From Octopus vulgaris (lineage: Eukaryota), in assembly GCA_951406725.2 (NCBI GenBank), contig OX597816.1, forward strand, positions 64,480,001 through 64,544,000: 64,000 nucleotides of DNA, read 5' to 3'. Of this stretch, positions 18,644 to 44,827 are shown piece after piece. Each line of letters begins with the position of its first letter. Positions within the stretch are counted from its first letter, which is position 1. The notes below the pieces were generated by a model. That model saw only the letters and a program-made list of their open reading frames with translations. It was not told the origin of the DNA and did no database searches. The position numbers and the translations under genes were made by a program.

Positions 18644-18709
<66 letters not shown>

Positions 18710-18725
18710 ATGTTACATTACTCGG

Positions 18726-18799
18726 TAGTCAAGATAAAACTCTGAGTTTCAGATGCCGAAGTGGAAATCCACAACACCATCTCTTCGGTTATCTGGCTA
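18726..18799 (-). ncRNA. Mirror copy of the PLE variant hammerhead
   Basis: Reverse complement of 22246-22319. Confidence 0.6.
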
Positions 18800-18988
18800 T
18801 TTGAAAACGTTATGAAAAAATAGCGTTAAAAATGAAGGGAAATTACTCTGTTATAACTCTGCTTTGCCTGCGTACTTATACATCGCTCGCATTTTTCGTC
18901 ATAAAAATTATATAAAAATACATAAAAATATATAAAAATATATAAAAATATATAAAATCTTCTTGGGACATAACACAGAAAGCATGTT

Positions 18989-20941
18989 CTATAAGTTTTC
19001 TTTAGGGGACCAAAAACGTAACAGAAATTTAGTCACATGTGGGCATGATCCGAAAAGCTCTGTCCTTGTATTTAGACATGTGGTAGGGTCTAAGCTGCTT
19101 TTCCAGATAAGCCATCTCTCCATGTCGCATAAACCGCACCTTCCGCTGCCGTTAGTGTAGGGCTTACATCTGGCCAAAATCTTCCATTGTATGTTATAAT
19201 CGACACCTTTATCTCTTAAAGACCAAATATGATTGGATAATTGTGTCGCTTTTCTTTTGTTCCAGTGCCTAAAGCTCAAAGTGTGGTTATTGAACCTGGC
19301 CTTGAAATTACCCTCTGTCAGGCCCACGTATTTCTTCGTCGAAACGGTGTCTTTAGTGGTTATAGAGTTTACGGTAGCTTCATATATGATGGTCTTGGAC
19401 ATGCAAGCTCCATTTAGCGGGCACAATTCTTTATTCCTGCATGAACAGCTGTTTTCTTCTTGTGTTTTTTGTATGTTATGATTGATTATGTTTTTAAAAT
19501 TGGTAGTTGAACTAAAACTAATTTTTAAATTGTGTCTATTGAAGAGTTTCCTATAAGCATGGTTAACTGGAAAATGTCTATCTATCAGTGCTAGGAAATA
19601 TTTACCTATATTGAAGGCCACCTCGGGTGAGTAAGGGGGCGTAAACCAGATGACCTTCCTATTTCTATTATTCCTTTTCCTTACTGTTGGGCTGGTGATA
19701 GGTGTATATTTTATTTTTTCGCTAAAACCACTATCTTTTAAAGCTTTATTATAAACTGGGGCAACGCTATTGAAGATGTCCTCATTAGATGAGAGGCTAG
19801 AAATCCTCTTACTAATATTTTTAACTAAATTTTTGAATACTATAGGGGGATGGCATGAACCTACATTAATATAACTTAGTCTATCATTGGGCTTCCTATA
19901 AGGCTTATAAATATTATTATTAAGATCTAAGGAAACGTCTAAGAAATTGACAACCGTCAGGTTAGTGTCTATAGTTATACTAAGTCCGAAGTGTTTCATT
20001 AACTGGATAATATCCTTCCTAAAACGATCTTGTGCTGGTCCATTTGTATTAGCTGTTAAGGCGAGGGCATCATCTTTGTAGATGGTGAAATGTACGTTAG
20101 GGAATGTCTTACCGAAGGTATCTAGGAGAAAGCGTCCAATTAGATCAGAGATGCCTGCCCCATCATATGAACCCATGCTCACATCGAAAGCGCCCTCCGT
20201 GTCGGTGTTTTTTACCCACTTTGCATTCTCACTGAAAAGTAATGTCTTTCTAGCATGGAAGATTATATCCTTATCATTGGTACTAATTTCTATGAAGTCA
20301 CTAGCGAAGATTAGGGCTTTATCTAGCAGTTCTTTAGAGATAGAGGCATAAAAATCAACAATGTCGAATTGTGTAAACCTCGCTTTTTTCTTATTCTTAA
20401 TAGCTTTAAACCAGTCTACGACTTCTATACTATTGGACCATTGCACTAGCCTAGTATCGGTCTTAATTTTCGTATTTATTTTATCTAAAATTTCTTTGCT
20501 AATAATCCCTAGTTCTGACTTGGCTGGGTTGATAAGCCTACATTTAGGGTTGGAAAGGAAGTTTTCTTTGTGATCTTTAATAGTAATAAAGGCCTCTTTT
20601 TGGGGGAGGGTTTCTATTTTTTTATCTAATTTAAGTTTAGCGGCGATGACGCTAGCTTCTTTATTAATTTCGTTATATGTCTGTGCCCTAGCCTTAGTAT
20701 AATTATTAGTAATGCTGTTGTGTAAGAGTTGTGTGTATTTGCTGTTATCTACCAGGTATAAGTTCTTGGTTTTATCCGAAAAGAGTGCTTTTTTCTTGGA
20801 GCTTTTTATATGATCAATATCTTTTTTCAATTTATGTTGGAAATTGTTAAAAGACTTACGAAACTTTATTTTGCTCATGATCTTCAGTAGGTCCGCTTCG
20901 AAATCTAGGACTCTTTCTCCTAGATACCTTCGGTAAGACAT
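18989..20941 (-). CDS. PLE polyprotein, reverse transcriptase plus C-terminal GIY-YIG endonuclease (N-terminally truncated)
   Basis: 650-aa open frame. RT motifs: KDHKENF..PKCRLINPAKSELG, FDIVDFYASI, SMGSYDGA, YKDD, VNFLDVSLDL, YRKPND. Cys linker CSCR..CPLNGAC. GIY-YIG: IIYEATV..YVGLTEGNFKARFNNH, CGLCDME, LNTRTEL. The first ~10 codons derive from the inversion junction. Confidence 0.93.
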   Translation of the reverse strand: MSYRRYLGERVLDFEADLLKIMSKIKFRKSFNNFQHKLKKDIDHIKSSKKKALFSDKTKNLYLVDNSKYTQLLHNSITNNYTKARAQTYNEINKEASVIAAKLKLDKKIETLPQKEAFITIKDHKENFLSNPKCRLINPAKSELGIISKEILDKINTKIKTDTRLVQWSNSIEVVDWFKAIKNKKKARFTQFDIVDFYASISKELLDKALIFASDFIEISTNDKDIIFHARKTLLFSENAKWVKNTDTEGAFDVSMGSYDGAGISDLIGRFLLDTFGKTFPNVHFTIYKDDALALTANTNGPAQDRFRKDIIQLMKHFGLSITIDTNLTVVNFLDVSLDLNNNIYKPYRKPNDRLSYINVGSCHPPIVFKNLVKNISKRISSLSSNEDIFNSVAPVYNKALKDSGFSEKIKYTPITSPTVRKRNNRNRKVIWFTPPYSPEVAFNIGKYFLALIDRHFPVNHAYRKLFNRHNLKISFSSTTNFKNIINHNIQKTQEENSCSCRNKELCPLNGACMSKTIIYEATVNSITTKDTVSTKKYVGLTEGNFKARFNNHTLSFRHWNKRKATQLSNHIWSLRDKGVDYNIQWKILARCKPYTNGSGRCGLCDMERWLIWKSSLDPTTCLNTRTELFGSCPHVTKFLLRFWSPKENL

Positions 20942-21045
20942 TCCCTAACGTACATTTCGCCATCTACAAAGATGATGCCCTCGCCTTAACAGCTAATACA
21001 AATGGACCAGCACAAGATCGTTTTAGGAAGGATATTATCCAGTTA

Positions 21046-22056
21046 ATGAAACACTTCGGACTTAGTATAACTATAGACACTAACCTGACGGTTGTCAATT
21101 TCTTAGACGTTTCCTTAGATCTTAATAATAATATTTATAAGCCTTATAGGAAGCCCAATGATAGACTAAGTTATATTAATGTAGGTTCATGCCATCCCCC
21201 TATAGTATTCAAAAATTTAGTTAAAAATATTAGTAAGAGGATTTCTAGCCTCTCATCTAATGAGGACATCTTCAATAGCGTTGCCCCAGTTTATAATAAA
21301 GCTTTAAAAGATAGTGGTTTTAGCGAAAAAATAAAATATACACCTATCACCAGCCCAACAGTAAGGAAAAGGAATAATAGAAATAGGAAGGTCATCTGGT
21401 TTACGCCCCCTTACTCACCCGAGGTGGCCTTCAATATAGGTAAATATTTCCTAGCACTGATAGATAGACATTTTCCAGTTAACCATGCTTATAGGAAACT
21501 CTTCAATAGACACAATTTAAAAATTAGTTTTAGTTCAACTACCAATTTTAAAAACATAATCAATCATAACATACAAAAAACACAAGAAGAAAACAGCTGC
21601 TCATGCAGGAATAAAGAATTGTGCCCGCTAAATGGAGCTTGCATGTCCAAGACCATCATATATGAAGCTACCGTAAACTCTATAACCACTAAAGACACCG
21701 TTTCGACGAAGAAATACGTGGGCCTGACAGAGGGTAATTTCAAGGCCAGGTTCAATAACCACACTTTGAGCTTTAGGCACTGGAACAAAAGAAAAGCGAC
21801 ACAATTATCCAATCATATTTGGTCTTTAAGAGATAAAGGTGTCGATTATAACATACAATGGAAGATTTTGGCCAGATGTAAGCCCTACACTAACGGCAGC
21901 GGAAGGTGCGGTTTATGCGACATGGAGAGATGGCTTATCTGGAAAAGCAGCTTAGACCCTACCACATGTCTAAATACAAGGACAGAGCTTTTCGGATCAT
22001 GCCCACATGAGACTAAATTTCTGTTACGTTTTTGGTCCCCTAAAGAAAACTTATAG
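21046..22056 (+). CDS. PLE C-terminal part (RT thumb + GIY-YIG), inverted second copy
   Basis: 336 aa identical to the C-terminus of the 650-aa ORF except V/E near the end. Homology extends upstream to ~20913 and includes YKDD. Confidence 0.9.
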   Translation: MKHFGLSITIDTNLTVVNFLDVSLDLNNNIYKPYRKPNDRLSYINVGSCHPPIVFKNLVKNISKRISSLSSNEDIFNSVAPVYNKALKDSGFSEKIKYTPITSPTVRKRNNRNRKVIWFTPPYSPEVAFNIGKYFLALIDRHFPVNHAYRKLFNRHNLKISFSSTTNFKNIINHNIQKTQEENSCSCRNKELCPLNGACMSKTIIYEATVNSITTKDTVSTKKYVGLTEGNFKARFNNHTLSFRHWNKRKATQLSNHIWSLRDKGVDYNIQWKILARCKPYTNGSGRCGLCDMERWLIWKSSLDPTTCLNTRTELFGSCPHETKFLLRFWSPKENL

Positions 22057-22245
22057 AACATGCTTTCTGTGTTATGTCCCAAGAAGATTTTATATATTTT
22101 TATATATTTTTATATATTTTTATGTATTTTTATATAATTTTTATGACGAAAAATGCGAGCGATGTATAAGTACGGAGGCAAAGCAGAGTTATAACAGAGT
22201 AATTTCCCTTCATTTTTAACGGTATTTTTTCATAACGTTTTCAAA

Positions 22246-22319
22246 TAGCCAGATAACCGAAGAGATGGTGTTGTGGATTTCCACTTCGGCATCTGAAACT
22301 CAGAGTTTTATCTTGACTA
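22246..22319 (+). ncRNA. Type I hammerhead-like motif (variant core CCGAAGA) in PLE pseudo-LTR
   Basis: Stem I tagccagataa/ttatcttgacta; CCGAAGA 22257-22263; stem II GATG..CATC; GAAA 22295-22298; palindromic stem III ACTC-A-GAGT; GUU triplet. Confidence 0.6.
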
Positions 22320-22409
22320 CCGAGTAATGTAACATATTGTATAGATAAATTTCCTCTATTTACATAATATTGAGGTCTCTTTCTTTCTTTTGTTATCTTA
22401 CCGTTTTAT

Positions 22410-22452
<43 letters not shown>

Positions 22453-22454
<2 letters not shown>

Positions 22455-22646
22455 GGTCCCGGGTTGATTCGGGGTCAACCACAGTAAATAAGGTACTCAA
22501 TACATAGCAGAGTAAAATTAATTTATTATATAGAAGGAGCTTCTACAGGACTAGAACTGTTTCATTCAAGAGAAATCATCAGGAAGCTTCCAGATGATTT
22601 CTCTTGAATGAAACAGTTCTAGTCCTGTAGAAGCTCCTTCTATATA

Positions 22647-22652
<6 letters not shown>
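22453..22652. mobile_element. ORF-less palindromic HHR mini-element in (TA)n
   Basis: 132-bp palindrome at 22521-22652, centred on ggaagcttcc, with one mismatch (22581/22592). A 68-nt one-sided tail at 22453-22520. (TA)n flanks. Confidence 0.8.
22536..22591 (-). ncRNA. Minimal type I hammerhead motif
   Basis: Minus strand reads ggaagcttc CTGATGA tttc-tctt-gaat GAAA cag-ttctagtc-ctg TA gaagctcc. Stem I agcttc/gaagct, GUA triplet, weak stem II closed by U-U. The plus-strand mirror has CAGATGA. Confidence 0.6.
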
Positions 22653-22682
<30 letters not shown>

Positions 22683-22717
22683 GGGGGGGGTATGCGTGTG
22701 TGAATGTGTCTGTGTCT

Positions 22718-22759
<42 letters not shown>

Positions 22760-24194
22760 ATAAATCTCTGACTACATGGTAGAGTAAAATAACGTACAAG
22801 GCATTGGTTGCAGAACTGACGAATTGTAAAACAAGGAAGCATTTCGTAAAATTAGTTCTATTTCTTCAACCACATAAACCTATCAACAAAGCTATGATAT
22901 ATGAACAATCAATGATGCTCGACGAAGACTGATTTGTCGATGGAATATATGATATTCTTAGCAAATTAACGAGAATATTTGCAGGTTTAGAACCTCAGTT
23001 GATTTCAGTACAATTTAACAGTTTACCGCGCATGATTCAAAATACAAATTTCATTGCATTAGCCATTTCCAGTTTTACCATGGCAAAATACACGATGTAT
23101 ATCAGCGGAATGCCTTACAATCCCACGCCGAATACAGCTTCAAAGGAGGATTACTTCCTTGCTCTAGTCAAGAAATAAATTATATTAGATATTTATGTGC
23201 ATGGTGTCAAACTAACGTGATAAATGTCGATTCAGAGTAATATTGATTTCTTTTGACTGTGTAAAAAGCTACGTTTTATAAAGGGCATTGTATCGCCGAT
23301 TGAATCGACTACAATAGATTGCTAACACTTACTTTATCGACTTCGAAGGGATGAAAGGAAAAAGCTCCAACCTGGCATTCTTTGAACATAATACACGCAG
23401 CAAGGAAAGTAAATACTGTAAGACATTTAGTTGTACATTCTGCTGATTCTGCCAATTTACTGCCTTTCATTTTGAATATAATATTGATTTCTGACCTGGC
23501 CAAAAGGTTAACATGTTTACAGGGGTCCGATTGTAGATCTTTATCCATTTTCATTTTACGTTTGTTACCAATGTCCTTTCCGAATATCATCGATTGTAAA
23601 ATTGAAATTTTTTGTATCACTCCGTCGGCTTACTAAGAACTAATCTCTTGATCTCCAGCGCTCGTCATATACTTATTTATCGTGCTGTCTATAAAAGAAT
23701 ACATTCTATATGCATTTCTTTGTTGTTCTCGTATCTTGCTGAAATCCTATTTGACATTCATTTACCCTTAATCTATAGAATAACACAGTTTCTCTATAAA
23801 AATGTTTCAAGCGAAGCCAAAACTAATGCTAAAAGTGCATAGTATTAGCTAAAACTTACGGTGATATTTTATGACTAAAGATTAACTATTAGAATATTTA
23901 ACTATTGTTAATAAACCTAACATGGCGAAAAGTTTTAACAGTTTTCTTGCGCTTGCTGTTGTCGACTCTCCATAATTTAGTTCTCATTCAAATAGTCTAA
24001 AGGTCGTTCCAGCTGTGACTATACCATATTTCGTACTTTACACACACGTCAGTGTTTCCAGGACACACCCTAATGTTTCCACCTTTTCGGTTGGTAGATT
24101 ATTGTTTGAGGGAGATGCGGTTACAACTTCTAGCATTTCTAACATTTCTTTCCTACAGCTTTGAGTTTTCAATACAGAAACTATTGGTAGGCCT

Positions 24195-24605
24195 ATGCCC
24201 AAGCATGGTTGTGTCGTTAAATATTTTACCTTACAAACTCGTGGATTCGAGTTCAATTCGACATGACGGTACCTTGGGCAAATATCCACGAATATAGAGC
24301 CGCGCCGAGTGAATTTATCATATGTGAGTATGTGTGTTTGTAAGCATGCATGCGTGTGTGTGTGTGTTCTTCGTGTATTTCTGTTTGTTACTTAATCCAG
24401 CACATCAACCTTTATTGGTTTGTTTATGTCTACTAAATCATCGGCTTGGGAAAAAGAGACTGATTAAAAACATACCAGAAATTTTTCTTAAAGGAAAAAA
24501 TATATGAACCGCATGGCTGGATTTGATCGATTATACCCTTCGAAGTGGAGCCCCAGCATGGCCACTGTCCTACGACTGGTAGAAGTAAAAGAATAAAAGA
24601 AGGTA
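24195..24605 (+). mobile_element. SINE family A, diverged
   Basis: gagttcaattc..ggtaccttgggcaaatatc..ccagcatggccactgtc..aagtaaaagaataaaaga. Confidence 0.6.
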
Positions 24606-26667
24606 AAAAGTCAAGTATATTGATAACACCGATCCCAAAACCTTATGATTCCCAAAACCTTATGACAGACGTCAGAAGACTGGATTATAAAATCGTATTT
24701 TAAGACTGATATTTTGCTGATTCGCCTCTACATAGGAGTTGAGTCATTTTACTTTATCCGATGCTTAACATAGTGAAGAATTCTTCCACTTAATATAACA
24801 GACGACAGACAGCATTACAAGTAAGGCGTCCATATTGTTTTTATTATTATTTTTGATACCAAATCTAGCGATTTGATATTGCATTTGTCACTTCACCATC
24901 TGAAGAACGTGAATAATGGCAGGCCTTACGTAAGGAACTATTAGGTGTCGTAAGGAAGCAATCAATTTAAGAATATTCAGCAAGCGGTAAAACGGTAAAA
25001 AAAAAGACAACAACAGCAAATGATAAAAATGAGATAATGAACCAGTTTGATTTAGTAAAATACCACTGTTCTTGAAAATGACATGTTACATCTCATTTCC
25101 GATTCCACTCAAAATATACTCAATCAAAAGAAACCAGAAACAATTAATTTTATAAATGATATTCCAGAGGAGGTGTAGATTGTGCGGCGGATATTAATTC
25201 ATTGGTTTGAGTGTATGTTATTAGATTTTTAAAAAAAGAAATTCAATTCCAAGAACTATTCAATCAACCATACTTTAAAAGTATTCAGAAATCTGTGGAT
25301 GTAGTCGTGGTTGTCCATTAAAATATTCGCATTAGAACTACAGAGTCCTGGTTCAAATTCACTTAGTGGACATTTAGGAAGGTGTAGCTACCACATGGAA
25401 CGGTTTGCTAAACTCTTATGGGTTAAATTCCGTAGATGGAAGCTCTCCCATAATAAGATTATACTAATGTGTGTGTTTGTGTGTGTGCGTGTGTACGCGT
25501 GTGTGTGTGAGAGAGAGAGATTTGTTAATAAGTAATAAATAAATAATAATAATAAAACGTCAATACTTGATATAATATTAATGAACTGAATACTATATGA
25601 CATGGATAAAGTACACCCCCTTATGTGAACGTCCATTTTGCATTTTATAATTTTCGTGAATTATTATATTACGTTTATATATTTGTTGTGCAAGATTTTT
25701 TATGTGAAGTCGTGTGTTGAAATAAGATTAAGATTAATGTAAAAAATAAATATCACTGAAGCAAAGTAACACCAAATATATAGTGTGTGTGTTTTTTATT
25801 GGCTAAACTGGCAAAATGACCATTCCGAAATACAAAAAAATAATTATTATATTCGTACCAGGAAAGTATCCAGAACACCATAAACTGATTAAACATTTAC
25901 GTGTAGTGCATTAGATAAAATATAATGCCTAAAACCTTTGAAAACATGATAGAAGATAAACAGAGCAAAGTAAAGATCGAAAACAAGTATACTACACCGG
26001 AGAACAAGTATAGTAATAATTGATAAAACCTGATACAATGAAATTTTTTCGTCTCTAGTTTCTGTCTTTAATCATTAATTTTCTTTAAATTTTGACATTA
26101 TATATGTATACCACTTGGCTCACTACAAATCTATAATTATATATTATTCTTATCTGATCCTTATTCATAACTCTATATAATTTTATTTTTCCCTTGCAGC
26201 TATTTATTTCATCCTGACAAAATTTTGTTAGGTGTGTTTTTCCTAAATCAATTAATAAACTCGGCTACTGGAGCGCTTTTTCACATTTTGCACGTGGTTT
26301 ACTGCTATGATTTATGTATAGATTTGATTTAGATTTACTAGAGTGTGTTCATATATTGTTGGAATATAATAAGTGGAAATATTCTAAGTAGTGCAATATA
26401 AATTATTTTAAGTGCTAAATCTTGTATGCTAACACATTAAATATTCAGAAGCAAAATTATTGACTATACATATTTATTGAAAATATAATATAACTAAGAT
26501 AACGCTGCACAGTATTAATGCAGAATATAGAACGAAAAGAAAACAGAAACAGTGTTAATCTCTACGGGCCTTTCAGAAATTTCCCTGGAAATTCTTCACC
26601 ATTTTAAACGTGGACATATATCATAGATATATGTATGTTTGTATGTATATATGTATATATATATGTA

Positions 26668-26745
<78 letters not shown>

Positions 26746-27109
26746 ATACATACATACGTGCATATATATATATATATATACGTGTATGTGTGTATTTTTT
26801 GTGCGTGTGTGTGTGTGTGATAAAATGTATTCATTGAGATGGGTGATGTTTTTTTTTCTCTCTGCGAGATGTGTATTATTTACGAGAATTGACTAAATGC
26901 TCTGTGAAGGTTCCGTCGTGCATGAAAATTCCAACGTTTCAGAGAGATCTTTCTACAGAATAAAGTCGATACGAAGAAATTAGAAAAACAAAACTAATAG
27001 AGTTTTACAATGTGTATGTTTGAGAAACTGGCTGCAGCTGATGAGGAACACAATATTATGTGTGATTCACAGTTAGAGGTAAACTTGGTGACATAGACAG
27101 CATATGGAT

Positions 27110-27355
27110 AAAACTCCTTTCTAGATCATATAGAGCCATAGGGCTTTTCTCCCGGGTCCTGAGGCGGATATTTTCCCCAAATGGACGGGACGCAGGCCCG
27201 TCGCAGAAGTACTCTTTTTTGCCAGCTGAATGGTATGGAGCAGCGGGAAATTAAGAGCTTTGTCCAAGAACACGATGCATTTCCCAGTTCAGGAAATGAG
27301 ACAACAATCTCGCGGTCAAGAGTCCAGTACTCTAACCACTAAGCCACGCGCCTCC
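27110..27355 (-). mobile_element. SINE, family C-related head
   Basis: Minus strand ggaggcgcgtggcttagtggttagagtactggactc..gtgttcttggacaaag. Confidence 0.6.
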
Positions 27356-29269
27356 CTGTTAATGGAGATGGAATCAGAAAGTGAAATGGGTGAAGGCTGT
27401 GGTGAGGCCGAGGGAATAAATGAAGTGAGAGAGGGGCTGAATGATGAGAAAGGGATTTACTGAAATGAGAGAGAATGTGGAAGTGTAGATTGGAAAATAT
27501 TCATTAAACACATCAAGTGCATTGTGCCAAGTTCGAATATGGGTTAGTAATAGAATGGCTTATTGTGTTGAACTGTGTGCTGACCATTTGGACAAGAACA
27601 CTTTCGTTGTGTGCTTAGAATATGCACTCGAAAGCGATTTGCTAGGTGACGATATATTCCTCAAATATAAAAGTGGCTCCAAGATGGACAGGAAAGATTT
27701 CTGTGTAAAGTGGTGCTGTGGCATGTGTTGTTAATTAATATAAGGAAATTAATCTTGGTATTCTCAAAAATACCTGCTAATGTTTGGATGGTGCCAAAGA
27801 TTTTTCTACGTGGTTTCATAGGATGCTTTTCCTTTTGACTGCGACGAATGGTTGTGTAGCGATGCTCGGAGCGGTTTTGCGGTCAGAAAATAGAATTTGG
27901 AAGTTGGCAATGAGTTTGTATTTCAATCGCAAGATAGAATGGCTCAAGGTACGTAAGAGAGAGTGGAATCAGTTTTGTAACTGTATGTAAAAAGGATAGC
28001 AGTGCATTGGCATGGTCAATGCCCTGAATATAGTGATAAACACTTATCAATTTATGAGGAATCCTCCGTTTTCTGTCACTAGGGTTCGAAGTCTGAATAA
28101 ATTCTGCAAAGTCGACCATGCCGAAGGAATTGCAGTGAATACAATGGAACGTTTCATGTGTTTTTGGTGACAAAACTCTTGTGGAGAATTAGTAACACTT
28201 TCGAACTGGATATTTTCTGACAGTAAAAGTAATAGTCAGTTATAGAGATATAGATTTTGACATGTCGTGCATGTGTCGATACAAGAAATAATCATCAATG
28301 ATAATGAACTTTAAAATTTGTACAGACTTCAAGGTTTTGATTCCGCCTTGTTCATAGCTATGGGGTGGCGTACAAGAAGGTTTTCTTGATAATGCAATAA
28401 TGTCTATTCTCTTACTATAGTAATATACCTCAGGGAATCAAACAAAATTATTCATGTACCTAAAAGAATATTGATCTCAAAAGATCGAGACTGGTAATAT
28501 GGAACGTGCACGTTTAAAAATATAACAATCATTTTCTATACTGCCTATCGTACAGTGATTTATATATTTTGTTAAGATGGCGTTAGGTAAGTTGGGACTT
28601 GAAAGATATAATCGGTTTTAACCTTTTATTAACAAGATTACTTGGTAAGACGTTTTGTAAGCGTATTTGATTTCTTACCGTTATTATTGTTATTGTTGTG
28701 CATCTCCGTTTGGCTGGGTGCGACGTATAGCGATAAACAATCAATAATATGTTATAAAACGATAAAGAGATCAAAGCCGTAATTTATTCTCAACGCTTCT
28801 TTTATTTCACAATATAAAACATTCTGACAATCTTTGATTGCTGGTTTGAGATCTGGCATTTATGTCACGTAATGCATTTTTATTTGATATTATGCATGAT
28901 TGCAAACAAGAAAACTGGTTTTCGTTGGGTATTTCAATCTTGACTTGAAAACTCCAACTTAATGTGTAGGAGCTAAATTTCATATGCACAAACGTCTAAG
29001 AAATTTTATCAATTCATTCTAATAAACTAAATGCTGTTTTCTTCCGAGAAAAATTCTTATATAGAAAAGTCGAGCAAAAGGCCAGTGGAGAGCGCTAGGT
29101 TGTCAAACATTTAAACCAAATTTTCTCAAAACAACTTGTCCGACCGTCCCATAGGCCTCCCCTTTGAGAAACACTGATTTAACCGAAATTTGAGACACCA
29201 GCAAAAGAAGAAATAAAGATAGACTTCTTTCTATTCCAAAGAATATTTTATCGATCGCATTCTCACCTG

Positions 29270-29412
29270 GAATCGATTTTTGTAATTCAAGACTTATACA
29301 CGCCCTGATACCGTCGGTATCTACATATCAAATTTGAGTGCAATCGGATGGAGGATGCCCGAGATCCTAGAAGACACACACACACAGACAGAACAGATTT
29401 TATATAATAGAT
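29270..29412 (-). mobile_element. Non-autonomous Helitron-like 5' end
   Basis: Minus strand a|tctattatataaaa..(tctg)(tg)n..ccgattgcactcaaatttg resembles common Helitron-N 5' termini. Confidence 0.45.
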
Positions 29413-30019: not shown

Positions 30020-30147
30020 CAGGGTGTCCCAAAAAAATGTATACACATAGTGGTTCGGCAAAAGAGAACGATAGAATAAGTACTAGGCTTACAAAGAATA
30101 ACAAATTTACAATTATTTAAGGTGTGTATACATTTTTTGGGGACACC

Positions 30148-30150
<3 letters not shown>
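30020..30150. mobile_element. 131-bp Tc1/mariner-type MITE with internal SINE fragment
   Basis: 28-bp TIRs cagggtgtcccaaaaaaatgtatacaca (one mismatch), TA flanks. 30049-30101 matches SINE family A. Confidence 0.85.
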
Positions 30151-30206
<56 letters not shown>

Positions 30207-30277
30207 TATAGGTGTATATGTACGTAAATTTATACATATAAGCTTACATACATACATGCATACATATATATATATAT

Positions 30278-30325
<48 letters not shown>

Positions 30326-33150: not shown

Positions 33151-33231
<81 letters not shown>

Positions 33232-34699: not shown

Positions 34700-34932
34700 A
34701 TTTCTTTATTACCCATACGAGGCTAAACATAGAGGAGCAAACAAGAACAGACAAAGTGATTAAATCGATTACATTGTCTCCGGTGCGTAACTAGTACTTA
34801 TTTCATCGACCCCGAAAGGATGAAAGGCAAAGTCAACCTCGGCGGAATTTGAACCCAAAACGTAACGGTAGACGAAATACTGCTAAGCATTTCGCCCGGT
34901 GTGTATAACGATTTTGCCAGCTTGCCTCCCTT
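34700..34932 (-). mobile_element. SINE family B, monomer
   Basis: tcgaccccgaaaggatgaaaggcaaagtcaacctcggcggaatttgaac..aagcatttcgcccgg. Confidence 0.85.
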
Positions 34933-35406
34933 ATTTACATTATATTGTGCTTGTTCCGCACTCTTTTGAGACATCACATGAAAACAGGTACATGCGACAT
35001 CAGGTCAGATGCACAACACAGTGGGATGATGTAGTACTTGGCCAGAGGCACGTATACTTCGTATATCTGTATGACTTTGACACAGGAACATCTGTTATTT
35101 GACCAACAATTGAAGCCCCTCCGGACCAGAGCGGACATGGGAAAACTGAAAAACATTACTCGACACAGGATTGATGAAGTCCTGAGCTTCACTGTTGGAA
35201 AGTGCTCAATGCTTTACTCGGGACATTCCTTGAATTGTGCGTGATAAAACGAAAATGAGTTGTGTTAGGTCAATTTTCAATGGTAGACCACAACAATATG
35301 TTTAGTATCAAAGCGTGTAACAATCAAATTCGTTAGAAATCAAATGACGGACATAAACAAGAACTAAAATCAATCACTCACACACACATGTATACACACA
35401 TATGTT

Positions 35407-35442
<36 letters not shown>

Positions 35443-35853
35443 AACACAGACGCATGCGCATATCAAGATACACATTATAGAAGAACAGAATGGAATAAGC
35501 AGAGCAAGAGCACACACGAAGACGGAAATTGTCACTGTTGAGGCTACAGATGTGTGAGGAAAGATTTCCGGACAATGGATATGAGAACGGGAATAAACGA
35601 ATGAAGAATGAATATATAGTGCGTGTGTTTATTTCTCACCCCCCCCCCAAAAAAAAAAACAGGAGGAAAAACGATCATCCCGAAATACAACAATACCTCT
35701 TTCAACACAGAAAGGAATCTTGCAACAAATTGATTAACGTTGTCTCACGTTGAAAAAAATCTTTTTGTCTTTGTCTCTTCTTGCATGCACATTTCTACTT
35801 ATATGTTGAATCATTCTCAAACATAGTCTTGCTTCTTAGGTTTAAGCTTCTGG

Positions 35854-35900
<47 letters not shown>

Positions 35901-35906
<6 letters not shown>

Positions 35907-36516
35907 TTTCTTTTTTCAATATTATTATGTATTCGTATAACTCTCTATGGTTTTTTCTGCTAGTGAAATTGTTATGTTGAACTATACTAGGCACGCGTGG
36001 CCTTTTTTATATTGTATTTCGCCTCGACCTGTTACTGTTTTGTTAAACATATCCCTTAGATTCTCATGCTATAGTTTAACTGCACATATAGACTTGCATA
36101 CACATTGATATGACTTTTTTTCTTTTTTCATCTCTCTCACTATTATTATTGTTGTTATCATTATTTTTCCCTTTCACAACTTGGTTTGTAAATTATCCGA
36201 TTTTCCCTCACTGCTCCATCTGTTTTCTCTTACTGTATCTTATTTCATTTTTATTTCTATTATTTTAAATTCTATTTCATCTTATTAAACTTTCTTGGTG
36301 TTCTTCAAGAGATTCCTCACACTGATGAGAATGACAATGCATAAATTTAGTTATAATTACTATGATCAAATTTTTTTCTTACACATTTGTATTGTTTTTC
36401 GAAACGTACGTCTGCATTGAATCCAGTTTTGCAAAAAATATATTTCTGATTCAACATTTTTTCTTTACTTTGTTTATACTTGTTTATGGTATATTTTTAT
36501 ACCTCTAAGGAAACTC

Positions 36517-36520
<4 letters not shown>
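35901..36520 (+). mobile_element. Probable solo PLE pseudo-LTR or retrozyme-like element carrying the 36311 HHR
   Basis: T-rich ~620-bp segment bounded by two (TA)n tracts and containing an HHR motif. Confidence 0.5.
36311..36423 (+). ncRNA. Type I hammerhead motif with long stem II
   Basis: gattc-ctca-ca CTGATGA (36322-36328); gaatgacaatgca..tgtattgtttttc (12 of 13 pairs, including G-U); GAAA (36401-36404); cgt-acg TC tg-catt-gaatc. Palindromic stem III, GUC triplet. Confidence 0.75.
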
Positions 36521-36585
<65 letters not shown>

Positions 36586-36662
36586 ATGCAATACGAGAGT
36601 ATTGCTTTCCAGTAAAGAATAGCCCGTGAGGGAAAATTATACATAGAAGTAAATATATGGTA

Positions 36663-36859
36663 CAACGTTACATGATGGACGGCAGGCATCGTACTTCTTC
36701 ATCTTTGGCTCAAAAAGTGTCAGCTGTTTAGTAGAAAGAGTGCAGTTCACCAAAGTTTGAACCAGTGTGGCTTTCATGGATGCATTCCTCGTATGAAGCC
36801 TCTACTCACTACGAAGCATAAATCAAATCATATTTCATTCCCGAAACCTATGCGAGTAA
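36663..36859 (+). repeat. 197-bp inverted duplicate of Tc1 segment 37913-38109
   Basis: Reverse-complement match with only a few substitutions; coordinates sum to 74772. Confidence 0.92.
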
Positions 36860-36878
36860 TGGCAATTTCTGTAAAATA

Positions 36879-36913
<35 letters not shown>

Positions 36914-37068
36914 ACGTATTTTTGCCATTTCAATATGGCTAACCCCTAAGGGTGGATGCTACTGTAGTTTTTAGCCCCATGAGGACACACTCCTCCAGCT
37001 GGCCATAGACACACTTTCTTTGTCCTGTCAGTATTTGCAAAGGGAAGTCATCCTTCCCGTCTTCAACT

Positions 37069-37129
37069 TATGATACACACGGAATCGAGTTTCGAGGTAT
37101 TGACCTCTCGTCAGCGTGTGACAGTCATA
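37069..37129 (-). ncRNA. Second hammerhead copy with a G16.2-to-U change
   Basis: Same as 37422-37482 except position 37084 (triplet UUC, stem III mismatch) and one change in outer stem I. Confidence 0.8.
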
Positions 37130-37421
37130 GTTGTCGCCGAGAATTAGATTTCCTTCACAAATACTTATACTTTTTCCAGCGTCCACTGTCGCTGATATTG
37201 AAAAAGTGAAATCAAACAATGATAAATATCAATGTGAGTTATATACAGTGGCGGTAACACAACGTGACGTATTTTTGCCATTTCAATATGGCTAACCCCT
37301 AAGGGTGGATGCTACTGTAGTTTTTAGCCCCAGGAGGACACACTCCTCCAGCTGGCCATAGACACACTTTCTGTGTCCTGTCAGTATTTGCAAAGGGAAG
37401 TCATCCTTCCCGTCTTCAACT

Positions 37422-37482
37422 TATGATACACACGGACTCGAGTTTCGAGGTATTGACCTCTCGTCAGCGTGTGACAATCATA
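37422..37482 (-). ncRNA. Canonical type I hammerhead ribozyme
   Basis: tatgat-tgt-cacacg CTGACGA gagg-tcaata-cctc GAAA ctc-gag TC cgtgtg-t-atcata. Full core, GUC triplet, bulged stem I, palindromic loopless stem III. Predicted cut between 37435 and 37434. Confidence 0.9.
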
Positions 37483-37708
37483 GTTGTCGCCGAGAATTAG
37501 ATTTCCTTCACAAATACTTATACTTTTTCCAGCGTCCACTGTCGCTGATATTGAAAAAGTGAAATCAAACAATGATAAATATCAATATGAGTTATATACA
37601 GTAGCGGTAACACAACGTGACGTATTTTTGCCATTTCAATATGGCTAACCCCTAAGGGTGGATGCTACTGTAGTTTTTAGCCCCAGGAGGGCTATATATA
37701 TTTCTGTA

Positions 37709-37746
<38 letters not shown>

Positions 37747-37793
37747 CTAAGTAAATATATATATATATATATATATATATTTCTGTAAGATAC

Positions 37794-37842
<49 letters not shown>

Positions 37843-37849
37843 TAAATAT

Positions 37850-38585
37850 ATGACCCAAAGGAGTTTATCTTTGTCTCGTGAAAAAAGAATTTTATTCCAA
37901 AACTCCTTCCCCTTACTCGCATAGGTTTCGGGAATGAAATATGATTTGATTTATGCTTCGTAGTGAGTAGAGGCTTCATACGAGGAATGCATCCATGAAA
38001 GCCACACTGGTTCAAACTTTGGTGAACTGCACTCTTTCCACTAAACAGCTGACACTTTTTTAGCCAAAGATGAAGAGGTACGACGCCTGCCGTCCATCAT
38101 GCAACGTTGAATGTAGCGAATATCACGCGCCCTTAAAACAGAAGGACCACCCGGACGATGTTTATTACTTGGCCATCCACTAGCTTTGTAGTTCTGAATT
38201 CCATTGGCAACTGTGTTTATGCTAATATGTATTCGTTTGCTAATTAACTTGTATCATAAATCATTCTTCTGCAAATTAAAAATAATTTTCTTCAAATCTT
38301 CAGACAATTGCTTTCCCTTTGGGGGAATTTTAATCACAATCTTCTGATTTACACCACGGTGCACAAATCAGAATACCTGCGGATGCAATAACAATGACCG
38401 GTGCAAAAGTGTCAGGGGAAATAATCTATTAGAATTGAAATTATCAGTAATATCTGCATTTAGCAAAACGAAAGTGGATAAAATATTGAAAATAGCAAAT
38501 TTCCTTTAGGGTGTACATATTTTTGTAACGTTTGAAAATGAATATTTCGTTCACATGTTTGAAAATGTTTATTTCCATAGTGTAT
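37850..38585 (-). pseudogene. Tc1-family transposase remnant (N-terminal half)
   Basis: Translates to KGKQLSEDLKKII..YKLISKRIHISINTVA..YKASG..RPGGP and [26 protein letters not shown], with stops and frameshifts. Confidence 0.8.
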
Positions 38586-38600
38586 GAACATATGTATATG

Positions 38601-38663
<63 letters not shown>

Positions 38664-39237
38664 ATACACACTCTCACACGTTTATATATTGAATAAAGCT
38701 AAAAGTACATGTCTAGCTAGATCGTGATTTGTACTAGAGAATTTAGGTCACAAAACAAAATTAAGAAATCTGAAAAAATTCCTCACCTGTTACCTATGTC
38801 AATACTAGTGTCATTTCTTATCTTCTGTTTCCATATTTTGAAATGTAACATCTAAAGAAATTTGAAGAAAAAAAATTCATGTAAAAATTTGTGCATTACG
38901 AAAAGTTCTTTGTTACTGAATTTGTTTTGTATTTATTTGTTACCATAACTGCATTTGCCAAAATGTAGCCGAGTTTATATCACGAGTAATCATTAAGGTA
39001 TCGCAGATGTTAGCCTTTATTTCAGATTTTCTTTTCTGATACTTGTGTAATAAATAAATAACAAAATATATAAATAGATAAAATAAAAATCAAAGAAAAC
39101 AGAGAGAGTATACTGGCTTCTAAATCTAAACCTACGTCCTCCGTCGTGTATTTTCCGAATGTATTCTTATATTTCATATTTTCTTCAGGGCTGTGCATTT
39201 TATATATAATTATATTCTGTACACACACACACACACA

Positions 39238-39311
<74 letters not shown>

Positions 39312-39338
39312 CACATATATAGACATACATATATATAA

Positions 39339-39372
<34 letters not shown>

Positions 39373-39428
39373 ATAAACATATATATATATATAAACATAT
39401 ATATATATATAAACATATATATACATAC

Positions 39429-39460
<32 letters not shown>

Positions 39461-40541
39461 TCATTTTCCTTTCGCAATGAAAATATGTTATACCTCATTG
39501 TTTTTGTGTGTCAAAACGAAAAATTGCAAGTTTATTTCCCCTCTATTTTTTCATGTAAAACGTATACATATATGTTTGTATGTGAGAATGGCATTTTTTT
39601 TATTTCGGTTTCGGGATATTTGTGTGCGTACGTGCTTATAGGCGTGTATGTGCATACTTTTTGTGTAGTTACATTAGTTCTATGCATAAAACACAGTTAT
39701 ACAAATTCGAAATGTATCTCATTCTTTCAAATCTATATCTACCTCTATCAAACTATCTATCTATCAATATTTCTTTCCCTTTGTCTCTCTCTCTCACTAT
39801 CTCACTCACTCTCTCTCTCTCTCTCTCTCGTTTTCTCTCACTCTTGGTGAAGAAAATATAAAGATAATTAATTTACGTAGCAATAAATGAAATCCTATAA
39901 TATAAAATACAAAACTGAATAAAATTGAGAAAAGACAGCTGGACATATGACGATTATACCAAAAAGGGGGTGGGGATTGAAGAACAGTAAAATTGAAATA
40001 GGGTTAAAAGTTCAAATAACTTCACATAATAACTTAAATTTTCGTTACACTTTCCAGCCACATTCGTTTATTGCTGAAGCCAAGCTGTACTTTTCTAGCC
40101 TTGAGCTTCCATGCATCGTATATATCAACAAAAAGCTTTTGTGTATACTTAGTATTGAATCTGGTGATTTCGTGGTGGACAGAAACCGAAAGAAGCCCAT
40201 CGTATGCATATGTGCATGTGTGGCGGGGTGTCCTCTTGAAGTACATATGCTTATTCCAGTAATCCAAATCCTATGTCGATGGTATATTTGTGTGACGCAT
40301 GCATGAAAGTTCAAAAATATTGGAAGTAATTTTTGTAATGTTTAATCACAATTACATCTGTTTCGTTTGCCAATACAAGCTACAAACTTTTACATGTAGA
40401 AGAAACACATAAAATATATCCAATAAGAAATTTTTCAGACAGTTTCTCTTTCATATACTCGTTTTCTAACTTCAACTAGCAGAATAAGGTGCATCTAATG
40501 GAGAAAACACAATGCCATAAGATGTTTCCAAACTCCTGCTT

Positions 40542-40595
<54 letters not shown>

Positions 40596-40892
40596 TAATA
40601 AATAAAATATATGCATATATACAAACATATATGTACGTACCGACATCTACATGTATATATACATGCATATATAAATATATATATACGTACAGGACACCAC
40701 AAGAAGACGTAAAAATCAACAGAAACGAAAACGGAAAAGCCATTTTGTTACAACAGAAGGACAGAGACGTGGAACAAGACGAAACGAAAACGAAAACTGG
40801 TGACTATTGTCTGAGAGCGCTTCGTGTCGGGTTCGTTTCAATTTTCGATTTTTCGAATTCTCAACTCGTTCCGTCTCTTTCCTCCTCGTTCG

Positions 40893-40948
<56 letters not shown>

Positions 40949-40949
40949 T

Positions 40950-41140
40950 ATTCTTTTATTTGTTACAGTCATATGACTGCGGCCCTGGTGGAGCACTGCT
41001 TTTTGTCGAGTAGATCGACCCCAGGACTTATTCTTTGTAAGCATAGTCCTTATTCTATCGGTTTCTTTCGCCGAACGGCTAGGCTACGGGCACGTAAACA
41101 CACCAGCATCTGTTGTCAAGCGATGCTGGCGGGACAAAAT
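40950..41140 (-). mobile_element. SINE family A, 3' half
   Basis: gatcgaccccaggacttattctttgtaagc..cacaccagcatctgttgtcaagcgatg. Confidence 0.8.
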
Positions 41141-41283
41141 CATTGATGCTTGAAGGAGAAACAAAAAAAGGGTAAATTCTTTTCAGTTCCACAGCGGACA
41201 GGTCAGTTTTAGCTTCACTACTATTATAATGTAAATCTTTTTGAACTCATAATATTCTGTACGTGTATACTGAACTTTTTAAA

Positions 41284-41640
41284 TAATTCCTTCTGGAAAT
41301 TATCTTGAGAATGTATAATATATTTGTTGTAATCTTTTGTGCCCATTATTTCAATGAGCTTGTTAAACTTTTTTATATTCTCGACATGCTCTTGTCACCA
41401 AAGAATGTATATTTATATGGATTGTAGTACTCTGTGTCAACCAATATTCTGTGCATGTTTGAATATACAGATAAAACACCAATACTAATATCAATTCCTT
41501 CTGGAAACTATCTTAAGCATGTCCTTGAGAACGATTATTTATGTAGTAATCTTTTGTGCCCAATATTTTAAGGAACTTGTCGAAATTGTTTATGTCCTTA
41601 ACATGTCCTTGTTACCAAAGACTGTATATATGTAATGTAG
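41284..41640. repeat. Diverged ~210-bp tandem duplication
   Basis: aattccttctggaaa..gtaatcttttgtgccc..ccaaaga occurs at ~41285 and ~41493. Confidence 0.65.
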
Positions 41641-42417
41641 CAATTTGTAACAACCAATAATTAACGCAACCAAACTTCTACATGTTACTTTTGACAATCT
41701 TTTTGCAAAGAGTGAAACCGGTAAAGTAAATAAACATCTTTTAAATTGCATTTTCAAACCTTCTTTCGTATATAATTCCACTCGTGCGGTACCCCACAAC
41801 TCCACTTTGTTATATATGTATATATATATATAGATATATATATGCATGCACATATTCATATATGCATGTATATATCTATGTATGTATGTTTGTATGCATA
41901 TATGATTAATTTCAATAAAAGTACATGTTACCTATGCGTACAACTAAACTCCATTTCATTTTTATTCCTCAGATCTCTTATAGAAAACGATTGATATACA
42001 ATTGAACCAGTTACATACTTATCTAGTGATTTTACTTTAATCCAATGCATAGGATGTGAGAGAGCGTCTGATAGTAATTTATAGGTACTTATCAAAAATT
42101 CAATGTCGAATACACAAACTTGCTTATCTCTGTTTACTTTTTTGCATCACAGATTAATTAAGGAGAAAAATTAAGCGCTATATATTTATTATATGCACAC
42201 ATGAACGTGTCTCTATATAATTTATTCACATAAGCACTGATTTAATTCACTTACAGTTCTATGCGTAGGTATGTGGTCTAGTGTATGTGTGTGCTCGTGT
42301 ACGTGTAGTCATACACGTACATATATTATTGACGTCATAAGAATTATACATACATATACATATATATATACACACACACTCACATATATATATATATATG
42401 TATACACACACACAAAC

Positions 42418-42489
<72 letters not shown>

Positions 42490-42514
42490 GCGTGAGTGTG
42501 TGTCCCGTGTGTCT

Positions 42515-42780
42515 AGCTGCGAGGCTTAGTAGTTAGTGTATTAGGCTCAAAATCATAAGGTCAAACGTTCGATTCCGGCTGGTGTTTGAGCAAGAGACCT
42601 TATTTCACGTTCCGCCTGTCCGATTAGCTGTCAAAAATTAGTTCAGTCTTGACACATTTGACGCATCTCACTGATTCTGCATGTTAACTGAACGCGTGTC
42701 TGTAAAGTATTCAGCCACTTGCAAGTATATTGCTCGAATCAACTGGAACATTCATCGCGGTAACCGAGAGAAGAAGCAGC
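42515..42780 (+). mobile_element. SINE, family C-related, diverged
   Basis: ggcttagtagttagtgta..gttcgattcc..gagcaagagaccttatttcacgtt. Confidence 0.55.
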
Positions 42781-42796
42781 TGGTATATTAATATAT

Positions 42797-43258
42797 GTTT
42801 CTTTATTACCCACACGGGGCTAAACATAGAGGGGACAAACAAGGACAGACAAACAGATTACGTCGATTACATCGATCCTACTGCGTAACTGGTACTTAAT
42901 TTATCGACCCCGAAAGGATAAAAGGCAAAGTCAACCTCGGCGGAATTTGAACTCAGAACGTAGCGACGGGCGAAATACCTATCTCTTCACTACCCACAAG
43001 GGGCTAAACACTGAGAGGACAAACAAGGATAGACAAACGGATTAAGTCGATTACATCGACTCCAGTGCGTAACTGATACTTAATTTATCGACCCCGAAAG
43101 GATGAAAGCCAAAGTCGACCTTGGCGGAATTTAATCGACCCCGAAAGGATGAAAGGTAAAGTCGACCGCGGAGGAATTTGATCACAGAACGTAACGGCAG
43201 ACGAAATACGGCTACGCATTTCGCCCGGCATGCTAACGTTTCTGCTAGCTCGCCGCCT
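42797..43258 (-). mobile_element. SINE family B with 3' duplication; tatattaatata on both flanks (TSD-like)
   Basis: Same dimer junction as 11058-11476. tatattaatata at 42785-42796 and 43259-43270. Confidence 0.85.
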
Positions 43259-43290
43259 TATATTAATATACCGCCTGGTATATTAATATA

Positions 43291-43468
43291 GGCATATATA
43301 TGGCTGTGTGGTCGTAAGATCGTTTCCCAATCACATGGTTCCGTGTTTGCATCCACTGCGACGTACCTGGGACATGTCTCCGCTACTATAGCTACAAGCA
43401 GAAAAAAAGCCTTGTGGAAGGACGGAAACTCCTACAAGATCATGTTTTTTACATGCGTATGTGTGTTT

Positions 43469-43510
<42 letters not shown>

Positions 43511-43690
43511 CTTTGCCCTTCACCACCGATTGACAAACGGTGTTGTCATGATTAAAAAAAAAGCGACTGATTGAATAAGTTCCAGTTTTTAATATAACTC
43601 CTTTCTTTGATTCGTTCAAACTAAAATTCATTTAGGCGGTTCACCAGCATGTCTGAATTCTCATGGCTGAAACAAATGAAAGAATAAAAT
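43291..43690 (+). mobile_element. SINE family A, diverged
   Basis: tggctgtgtggt..ccactgcg..ccagcatg..gctgaaacaaatgaaagaataaaa. Confidence 0.6.
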
Positions 43691-43714
43691 TATATATATA
43701 CATACATACATACG

Positions 43715-43762
<48 letters not shown>

Positions 43763-43771
43763 CATACGTAC

Positions 43772-43833
<62 letters not shown>

Positions 43834-44571
43834 TATATGTATATATATATATATATCGTTACCCACTACACACATTGTTTTCTCTCCTTGTTTTTTCTGT
43901 GTCCCTTTCTGTAGAAGAGCGTAGGCTCGAAACGTAAAAGACTTCTTTTATTCCTGAGCGTTATACTAATACATCTATTGGTTTTGTACACAACCTGTCT
44001 TCGTCTTTTGTTTTTTATTTCCTAAACTCTCCCTATATATACATATATCTATTCATAAAGTTGTAAACAAACCCAAACGCTGTAAATTACGGAGTAGAAC
44101 GACACGCATCGGTCCTTTTTAATGATAACTATAATTATATATTATTTAATATTATATGATGTTCCGTTTAAAGCGACTAAACCTAAACAATTGACCGAAA
44201 AAAAGATGGGCCTATCCACTGGGAACTGAACGCGACAACAATGCTCATATGGTTCCTTACGCAGCCAATTCTGCCACATAGACTACCCCTGAATTTCAGC
44301 CTTCAGGTTGTTTAGAAATTTATAAATATATATATACTAGACTAAAATTATCTATACATAAAAAAATGGCTGAAATTGATGGGTGGGATATGTGGCTGAA
44401 TTGGGTGTGTATGGTGCCGTGTAAGCATTGATGTCGTGTTCCTTTCCCAGTGATTTGGCCAACCTTTTTCAGTAAATTCTTTAGGTTTAGTCACATTAAA
44501 TGGATCACATATCATTAAATATATATAATTATAGTTATTATACATATATATATATATATATATCTGTAAAA

Positions 44572-44823
44572 TAATATGTGACAATTATTCAGTAGCCAAG
44601 ATAAAACTCTGAGTTTCGGATGTCGAGGTGGAAATCCACACCACCATCTCTTCGGTTATCTGGCCATCTTAAGAGATGATGGTGTGGATTTCCACCTCGG
44701 CATCCGAAACTCAGAGTTTTATCTTGGCTACTCAATAATTGTCACATATTAATTTACACTTAAATTCCTCTATTTACATAATATTGATGTATCTTTCTTT
44801 CTCTTGTTATCTTACCGTTTTTA

Positions 44824-44827
<4 letters not shown>
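44572..44827. mobile_element. ORF-less palindromic derivative of the 18.7-22.4 kb PLE pseudo-LTR
   Basis: 81-bp arms at 44572-44652 and 44671-44751, 18-nt spacer, tail at 44752-44827 homologous to 22344-22412, flanked by (TA)n. Confidence 0.9.
44593..44666 (-). ncRNA. Variant-core hammerhead motif (CCGAAGA), same family as 22246-22319
   Basis: tggccagataa CCGAAGA gatg..catc c GAAA ctc-a-gag TT ttatcttggcta. Outer stem I pairs better than in the large copy. Confidence 0.55.

Follow-up and report, generated by a model that had tools for sequence, protein, structure and literature searches.

Penelope-like elements (PLEs) have been described with an inverted 5'-truncated copy at their 5' end, a tail on one end and a bias for insertion at (TA)n, and one family of the Hydra clade, Penelope-13_HM, is recorded with a 5'-truncated inverted copy (PMC8557442). 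In vitro, the Poseidon protein of Anolis cuts and extends both strands, and reverse transcription begins at two internal positions delimiting the tail (Frangieh et al. 2024, PMC11167929). The origin of the head-to-head repeats and of the one-sided tail is treated as an open question in PMC8557442 and PMC3846280. A 64,000-nt window of the Octopus vulgaris genome (contig OX597816.1, positions 64,480,001 to 64,544,000; coordinates below are those of the window) contains three such head-to-head insertions, named E1, E2 and E3. With a probability of roughly 60%, they were made by Hydra-clade PLEs through the priming of separate cDNAs by the two target strands, at two sites called A and B. Two small conserved hairpins, spaced about 62 nt, appear to determine the ends of the elements; this paired end signal is apparently undescribed so far. 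The architecture itself, which the initial annotation of the window presented as one blueprint, is largely published.

E1 spans 18704-22411 and consists of two inverted arms (18704-20137 and 20908-22341) of 1434 nt each with 99.6% identity, separated by 770 nt and followed by a tail of 67-70 nt, the exact length being set by the assignment of a common TATA. The long head-to-head palindrome with a single tail was correctly recognized in the initial annotation, although its ends had to be corrected to these positions. The features of E1, including its open reading frame (ORF), reverse transcriptase (RT) domain and predicted hammerhead ribozymes (HHRs), are as follows.

18704..20911, minus strand: tailless long copy, a Hydra-clade PLE missing about 70 codons at its 5' end; the copy ends at site A
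18992..20944, minus strand: P0001, open frame of 651 aa with RT, CxCx5C linker and C-terminal GIY-YIG; the first dozen codons are junction-derived
18732..18794, minus strand: type I HHR of the tailless arm, core CCGAAGA, from pattern scan and stem pairing
20903..20925, no strand: head-to-head junction with an 8-bp stem, a 7-nt loop and a 4-nt exact microhomology at 20908-20911
20908..22411, plus strand: tailed short copy, starting near codon 270; arm to about 22341, then tail; its end is site B
22251..22313, plus strand: type I HHR of the tailed arm, predicted cut after 22307
22342..22411, plus strand: tail, 67-70 nt
22353..22378, plus strand: hairpin 1 in the tail, variant CCTC..GAGG

For the E1 protein, 7999 candidates were scored; 393 qualified as relatives at E<=1e-20, the top one with 52% identity, and a sequence search of the PDB gave no match. 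The GIY-YIG domain of the protein matched Pfam PF01541 at residues 534-566 with an E-value of 0.012, under the curated cut-off, and the Y..YxG..R residues were conserved in alignments. DKT (D57, K58, T59), found in place of DKG, was invariant in the alignment with the relatives, and the cysteine motifs of the Hydra clade were all present (CxCx5C: C500, C502 and C508; CxxC: C603 and C606; CxH: C634 and H636). Full-length relatives possess an N-terminal RWK motif, lost from the E1 copy through 5' truncation. No CCHH motif was evident in the endonuclease (EN) domain in alignments, which held no CCHH-bearing reference. The predicted fold of P0007, a full-length relative (pLDDT 93.9), had TERT as its best PDB match (E 1.1e-08, TM about 0.3).

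E1 therefore combines the features of an EN+ PLE, with a single ORF encoding a telomerase-like RT and a GIY-YIG domain and inverted terminal repeats with a tail, and those of the Hydra clade, with an HHR at the 3' end (predicted, with the core variant CCGAAGA) and insertion in (TA)n. Based on protein motifs and by-eye likeness to Hydra-1_Obim, it is assigned to the Hydra clade, in which it is an ordinary new family. The PLE origin put forward earlier is thus supported by a frame carrying RT, GIY-YIG and the Hydra motifs (DKT, CxCx5C, CxxC, CxH). Exact-pattern scans with the E1/E2 and E3 motifs returned no match in genome or viral contigs, and the protein scan of viral contigs returned no relative.

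HHRs were called by pattern scan and stem pairing, together with the same layout in published Hydra-clade HHRs (PMC8557442 table); at the gathering score, Rfam reported no family in the window. The scan detected type I HHRs in the two arms of E1, the tailless E2 arm and the tailed E3 arm; the opposite E3 arm holds an altered mirror copy, with the core CAGATGA. The statement that the arms contain the HHR region thus applies in full to E1, while the E2 tailed arm begins inside the core and the E3 tailless arm has a changed core. The core of E1 and E2 is CCGAAGA instead of CUGANGA. A C at position 4 of the core was observed in all three whole HHRs of the E1/E2 family (22257, 18788, 44655) and is absent from the published Hydra-clade cores in the PMC8557442 table.

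E2 and E3 are short palindromes composed of the following parts.

44565..44670, minus strand: E2 tailless arm, holding the whole HHR (44599-44661)
44671..44758, plus strand: E2 tailed arm, beginning within the HHR core
44759..44826, plus strand: E2 tail, 68 nt, with a decayed hairpin 1 (CCTC..GATG) from 44767
22453..22520, minus strand: E3 tail, 68 nt
22492..22513, minus strand: hairpin 1 in the E3 tail, variant ACTC..GAGT
22521..22652, no strand: E3 palindrome, axis 22586/22587 inside HHR stem I, with an intact-core HHR on the minus strand at 22538-22588

The E2 arms, about 90% alike, extend to 44565 and 44758. The palindrome and its tail exist as annotated, but the start at 44572 and the 76-nt tail do not: E2 starts at 44565 and its tail is 68 nt long, and the three tails consequently agree better than previously noted. 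The polarity of E2 is that of E1, the tailless copy reaching further 5' and the other copy alone being tailed. E2 is a short relative of E1 and of Hydra-clade PLE origin. The E3 arms (22521-22586 and 22587-22652) are 66 nt long, with no spacer and one internal mismatch, and their axis is a self-complementary AGCT in HHR stem I; arm length, 68-nt tail and opposite orientation were all reproduced. E3 had been described as unrelated in sequence, and it does belong to another family, yet the tail hairpin is common to E3 and the rest. From its HHR, its tail hairpin and the hairpin spacing, E3 is likewise taken to be a Hydra-clade PLE insertion.

Three candidate explanations were rejected for these elements. 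Miniature inverted-repeat transposable elements (MITEs) are excluded by the 68-nt tail of E2 and E3, which forms one terminus and lies outside the inverted repeat. Non-LTR retrozymes were discarded as E1-E3 are arranged head to head and not as head-to-tail tandem HHR repeats, and HHR-cleaved RNA was discarded as the template since both short elements retain sequence 5' of the cut site.

All six ends of the three elements adjoin (TA)n runs, located as follows (no strand).

18648..18705: (TA)n left of E1
22412..22451: (TA)n common to the tail ends of E1 and E3
22651..22680: (TA)n right of E3
44544..44563: (TA)n left of E2
44827..44868: (TA)n right of E2

The window holds 65 (TA)n runs of at least 16 nt (2358 bases), and a random position falls within 3 nt of a run edge with p of about 0.006. 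The proposed (TA)n targeting is therefore upheld, with six of six ends at (TA)n against this chance per position.

E1 differs from a plain hairpin in that the 770 nt between its arms are ORF sequence from the tailless copy. This copy extends 770 nt further 5' than the tailed one, while the tail is present only on the shorter copy; neither strand is a plain copy of the other, and simple fold-back therefore cannot make E1. Pure fold-back was rejected on these grounds, as the tail and the 770 nt lie on opposite copies: a copy of the tailless strand would have no tail and a copy of the shorter strand would lack the extra 770 nt. Fold-back alone, one of the routes suggested earlier, also fails for E2, where the tailless copy again reaches further 5' while only the other is tailed. 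In a hybrid form, a long cDNA primed at A would fold back and synthesize its second strand, and a short cDNA primed at B would give the tail, which still requires priming at both A and B. Self-priming on an antisense template is the published reading of junction palindromes (PMC3846280) and agrees with the short palindromes at the junctions of E1, E2 and E3; it also agrees with the origin of both E1 arms from one source variant, indicated by the letters that they share against the family majority. In either form, it is considered quite improbable. The E1 junction microhomology within a small palindrome and the AGCT axis of E3 both fit the annealing of two cDNA ends. Six mismatches separate the E1 arms, one of them within the junction microhomology. 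At the arm differences with family data (21600, 22010 and 22175), the letter of the tailless arm is that of the family majority, and the tailed arm has the minority one.

The sequence downstream of the HHR was compared across the window, 77 metagenome loci (L001-L077) and eight further loci (L078-L085). The latter are contigs from prokaryotic genome records with Hydra-type PLE ORFs, several with microsatellites, and are probably animal host DNA binned into metagenome-assembled genomes (MAGs). When 6-mers were counted without bias, AGCACT occurred in 25 of 33 families; this led to a motif located after the HHR and composed of GCTC, 6-19 nt and GAGCACT. Of 81 distinct GAGCACT contexts, 64 had GCTC 4-22 nt upstream (3.5 on average and at most 10 in shuffles), and 40 of these 64 had TATA or ATAT in the 14 nt preceding the hairpin (mean 18.5 and max 32 in 1000 shuffles). 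The strict motif was strongly strand-biased in the 77 loci, with 94 sense and 10 antisense matches. Hairpin 1 was present in 36 of 46 distinct post-HHR regions from all loci and the window, and the 3' half of a second hairpin in 24 of the 41 regions running the full 160 nt. In the 77 loci, 26 hairpin pairs (redundant loci included) were 55-75 nt apart, with a median of 62. Four variants are compensated (E1, CCTC..GAGG; E3, ACTC..GAGT; L080 and L082, GCAC..GTGC), so that base pairing of the motif halves is suggested, not proven. The motif is also visible by eye in three published Hydra consensus sequences, with a GCCC/GGGC variant in a fourth (PMC8557442 supplement). The main text of PMC8557442 contains none of the terms 'hairpin', 'stem-loop', 'palindrom' or 'twin', and no description of the hairpin pair was found in literature searches, whose reach excluded the PMC11167929 supplements (start-site stem-loop), subscription papers and Repbase reports, where the motif may already figure.

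The positions of element ends relative to these hairpins were consistent. In L001-L077, 34 sides of (TA)6+ runs comprised 3 contig edges, 18 without a second copy, 3 with simple repeats only, 2 junctions of 5' type and 8 junctions of 3' type for which an uninterrupted copy was available. These eight were all located 6-13 nt upstream of a hairpin, some of the first and some of the second, against a rough null of 0.13 per junction. Similar distances were obtained at the further loci (11 and 11 nt for the long element of L079, 6 and 10 nt for its short palindromes, 8 nt for L083, and 7 nt by eye for L080) and at the chosen junctions of the window (E1, 13 nt; E2, 8 nt; E3, 8 nt). In the L079a/L085 family, the tailless end is 6 nt upstream of hairpin 1 and one tail end 8 nt upstream of hairpin 2; another tail end precedes hairpin 2 by 5 nt, or by 0 when an imperfect TA stretch is assigned to the element. 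As the tailless end precedes hairpin 1 and the tail end precedes hairpin 2, the tail of 62-70 nt corresponds to the hairpin spacing. Two earlier suggestions thus gained substance: a fixed internal end point, with tailless ends just upstream of hairpin 1, and a second priming at a fixed internal site, with two end sites each 6-13 nt before a hairpin. The ends of published consensus sequences lie 30-48 nt downstream of the HHR cut in 10 of 24 families, 63-70 nt in 2, 88-153 nt in 11 and 355 nt in 1 (PMC8557442 supplement), which agrees loosely with two sites and is too scattered to count as support.

L079, a MAG contig that is probably host DNA, carries two short palindromes of the shape of E2 and E3, with tails of about 62-70 nt, on the same contig as a Hydra-type ORF. 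Together with the Hydra-clade tail hairpin of E3, these support the retro-derived origin proposed for short HHR palindromes. L017 and L030 also show a tailless inverted arm and a tail of about 70 nt, although their flanks suggest a collapsed assembly.

These observations are consistent with the following route. The template would be a tandem or circular transcript, each repeat comprising the ORF, HHR, a UA-rich patch, hairpin 1, a second UA-rich patch, hairpin 2 and the next ORF; this layout of HHR, UA-rich patches, two hairpins and ORF occurs in the relatives. The GIY-YIG domain would nick both strands of a (TA)n run, and the hairpins may be bound as RNA. One target 3' end would then prime RT immediately upstream of hairpin 1 (site A), giving the tailless copy, and the second would do so immediately upstream of hairpin 2 (site B), giving the tailed copy, each possibly aided by pairing of the target end with the UA-rich patch. 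The two antisense cDNAs would halt independently and join head to head through microhomology, followed by fill-in, and the tail length would equal the distance from A to B. An early stop of both cDNAs near the 5' edge of the HHR would yield a MITE-like palindrome of 200-400 nt.

The same positional data would fit another role of the hairpin motif, acting in DNA: the endonuclease would bind it in a tandem cDNA or donor intermediate and cut at the upstream TATA, and the element ends would be cleavage sites. This resembles the published idea of EN-mediated resolution, to which the tail is ascribed (PMC8557442, Craig et al. 2021), and tail DNA of the D. virilis element is reported to be needed for EN recognition (PMC11167929). 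On the other hand, the Poseidon tail ends are RT start sites in vitro (PMC11167929), and the GCTC-GAGC spacer ranges from 6 to 19 nt, a variability that suits a single-strand hairpin better than a duplex site. Cleavage in DNA is thus unlikely, although it deserves to be kept in view. More speculatively, the Hydra-clade RT might define its template as telomerase does, by docking on a hairpin and aligning the UAUA patch 5' of it with the nicked (TA)n; the two hairpins would load two RTs priming both strands, and RT may recopy the patch, thereby writing part of the (TA)n flanks. This extension is doubtful; if true, Hydra-clade elements would generate TA microsatellites as well as exploit them.

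Independent sequencing runs were compared over 20138-22411 only, that is, over part of E1, with E3 outside the range. The tail end followed by (TA)n was found in 51, 81 and 40 contigs of three runs. Two runs also showed a loose end near site A with E2-type letters, in 39 and 43 contigs of mixed consensus, and in one run this end continued into TA. At least seven joints linked an antisense to a sense part, each at a different place, four of them within 25 nt of the HHR core start. None of the contig pieces listed bridged the junction of E1 itself (26,836 more pieces lie outside that list), and the raw-read run (X24) was uninformative, with only 46 matching reads on two bins, 45 of them less than 90% alike. 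These last two results leave some room for palindromes arising as assembly or long-read fold-back artefacts. Such an origin is nevertheless highly improbable, as the arms differ at several sites (the E2 arms being about 90% alike), each copy has private sequence, the same type of joint occurs in contigs of other runs and the same shape in unrelated records.

Whether the short palindromes form a non-autonomous family copying itself as a unit, the retro-MITE proposed in the initial annotation, is a separate question that concerns the short elements. Contig depth summed over the terminal 200 nt of E1 was several-fold that of the ORF, and E3 has no ORF-bearing partner within the window; both would agree with such a family. 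However, all seven listed inversion joints of the E1/E2 family differ, as independent origins predict. Moreover, the tailed short copy is without hairpin 2, and a short palindrome without it should not yield tailed daughters. Self-copying is thus rather improbable, and the short palindromes are probably dead-end truncations.

Several points weigh against the priming of two cDNAs at A and B. The mechanism is inferred from sequence. The ratio of summed contig depth between the HHR bin and the tail bin was 1.36, 0.96 and 0.81, below the 2:1 that would result from two arms and a single tail in all insertions, contig depth being distinct from copy number. The two 5'-type junctions of L001-L077 obey no hairpin rule, and the relatives are short-read metagenome or MAG contigs, possibly chimeric across repeats, from related families that are not independent. 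The covariation is thin, 21 variant 3' halves comprising 4 that are compensated, 6 with GCTC kept and 11 without a partner. The hairpin itself is weak, appearing in the minimum-energy fold for E1, E3 and L003 and not for E2 or L050, and hairpin 2 is never seen for the window families, because every window copy ends before it. Finally, both arms of the long L079 element are tailless, L083 is a direct form whose unit is bounded by a 66-nt direct repeat (3712-3777 and 6209-6274) corresponding to the tail, and the tail of L050 sits on a short (47-nt) inverted piece. The L083 unit has (TA)n on both sides, and its 5' end is at hairpin 1. From these three loci, the combination of A and B is not obligatory. 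A single blueprint was therefore too strong a claim: the tailed head-to-head form is one common product, not the only one, and priming at A and B permits A+A, A+B and direct outcomes.

Other repeats were observed in the window. On the minus strand, a 353-nt repeat with a type I HHR is present at 36911-37690 in about 2.2 tandem copies; this retrozyme-like array lies between TA-rich runs, lacks the tail hairpin and is nested in an element with 203-bp inverted ends (36663-36865 and 37907-38109). A 143-nt (TA)n-flanked piece at 1263-1405 has a degenerate HHR core on the minus strand (1362). Directly left of the (TA)n flank of E2, 44122-44541 is a decayed 420-bp palindrome (about 75%), in which the pattern scan found no HHR. 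The 90-nt (TA)n-flanked element at 45947-46036 has terminal inverted repeats of 7 bp and, at 25683-25835, a longer relative collinear with it; unlike E2 and E3, it looks like a true MITE-type element. Two old inverted-repeat pairs were also found (30371-30535/31015-31169 and 12936-13299/13517-13872), as well as a frame at 55331-55717 that resembles a piece of mariner transposase.

A short conserved signal that predicts both ends makes the question of PLE tails and inversions experimentally testable, as tail length should track hairpin position. It also provides an annotation rule, locating true PLE ends and shifting some short (TA)n-flanked palindromes from MITEs to PLEs.

In LINE-1 twin priming, two target strands likewise prime two cDNAs, and joining through microhomology produces an inversion. 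The second L1 primer acts at variable upstream sites, so that the pieces barely overlap, whereas both starts here would be fixed about 65 nt apart and the arms consequently overlap as a long inverted repeat. Among described HHR-bearing elements, non-LTR retrozymes (PMC7229834; bioRxiv 10.64898/2026.07.22.740005) are also short, non-coding, PLE-derived and equipped with a type I HHR, and differ as tandem direct repeats. The dual minimal HHRs of Schistosoma (Cervera and De la Pena 2014, PMC4209133) lie on opposite strands as short inverted pairs separated by 100-700 bp and are interpreted as truncated PLEs; no tail, (TA)n flank or end signal was noted for them in that account. The Penelope elements of Adineta vaga (Arkhipova et al. 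2013, PMC3846280) share head-to-head inverted pseudo-long terminal repeats, an optional tail on one of them and junction palindromes, but are explained there by self-priming and have a 31-bp tail and visible target-site duplications.

The closest relatives are the Hydra-clade families (Craig et al. 2021, PMC8557442; nearest listed family Hydra-1_Obim), with which E1 shares the C-terminal GIY-YIG, DKT, CxCx5C, CxxC and CxH motifs, the HHR layout and insertion in (TA)n. Five short motifs of the window were unmatched in the PMC8557442 supplement, and the tail of 30-40 bp given in that paper, for Naiads and in a general figure, compares with 62-70 nt in the window elements and their relatives. With Poseidon (PMC11167929), documented biochemically where the present case is built on sequence, the likeness, as proposed here, extends to the cutting and extension of both strands, two start sites bounding the tail, AT-rich targets and independence from HHR cleavage. 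No explanation for the inverted arm was found in PMC11167929. The Poseidon starts lie in one AC-rich stem-loop within the ORF, while the ends of the elements described here lie just 5' of two repeated hairpins in the untranslated region.

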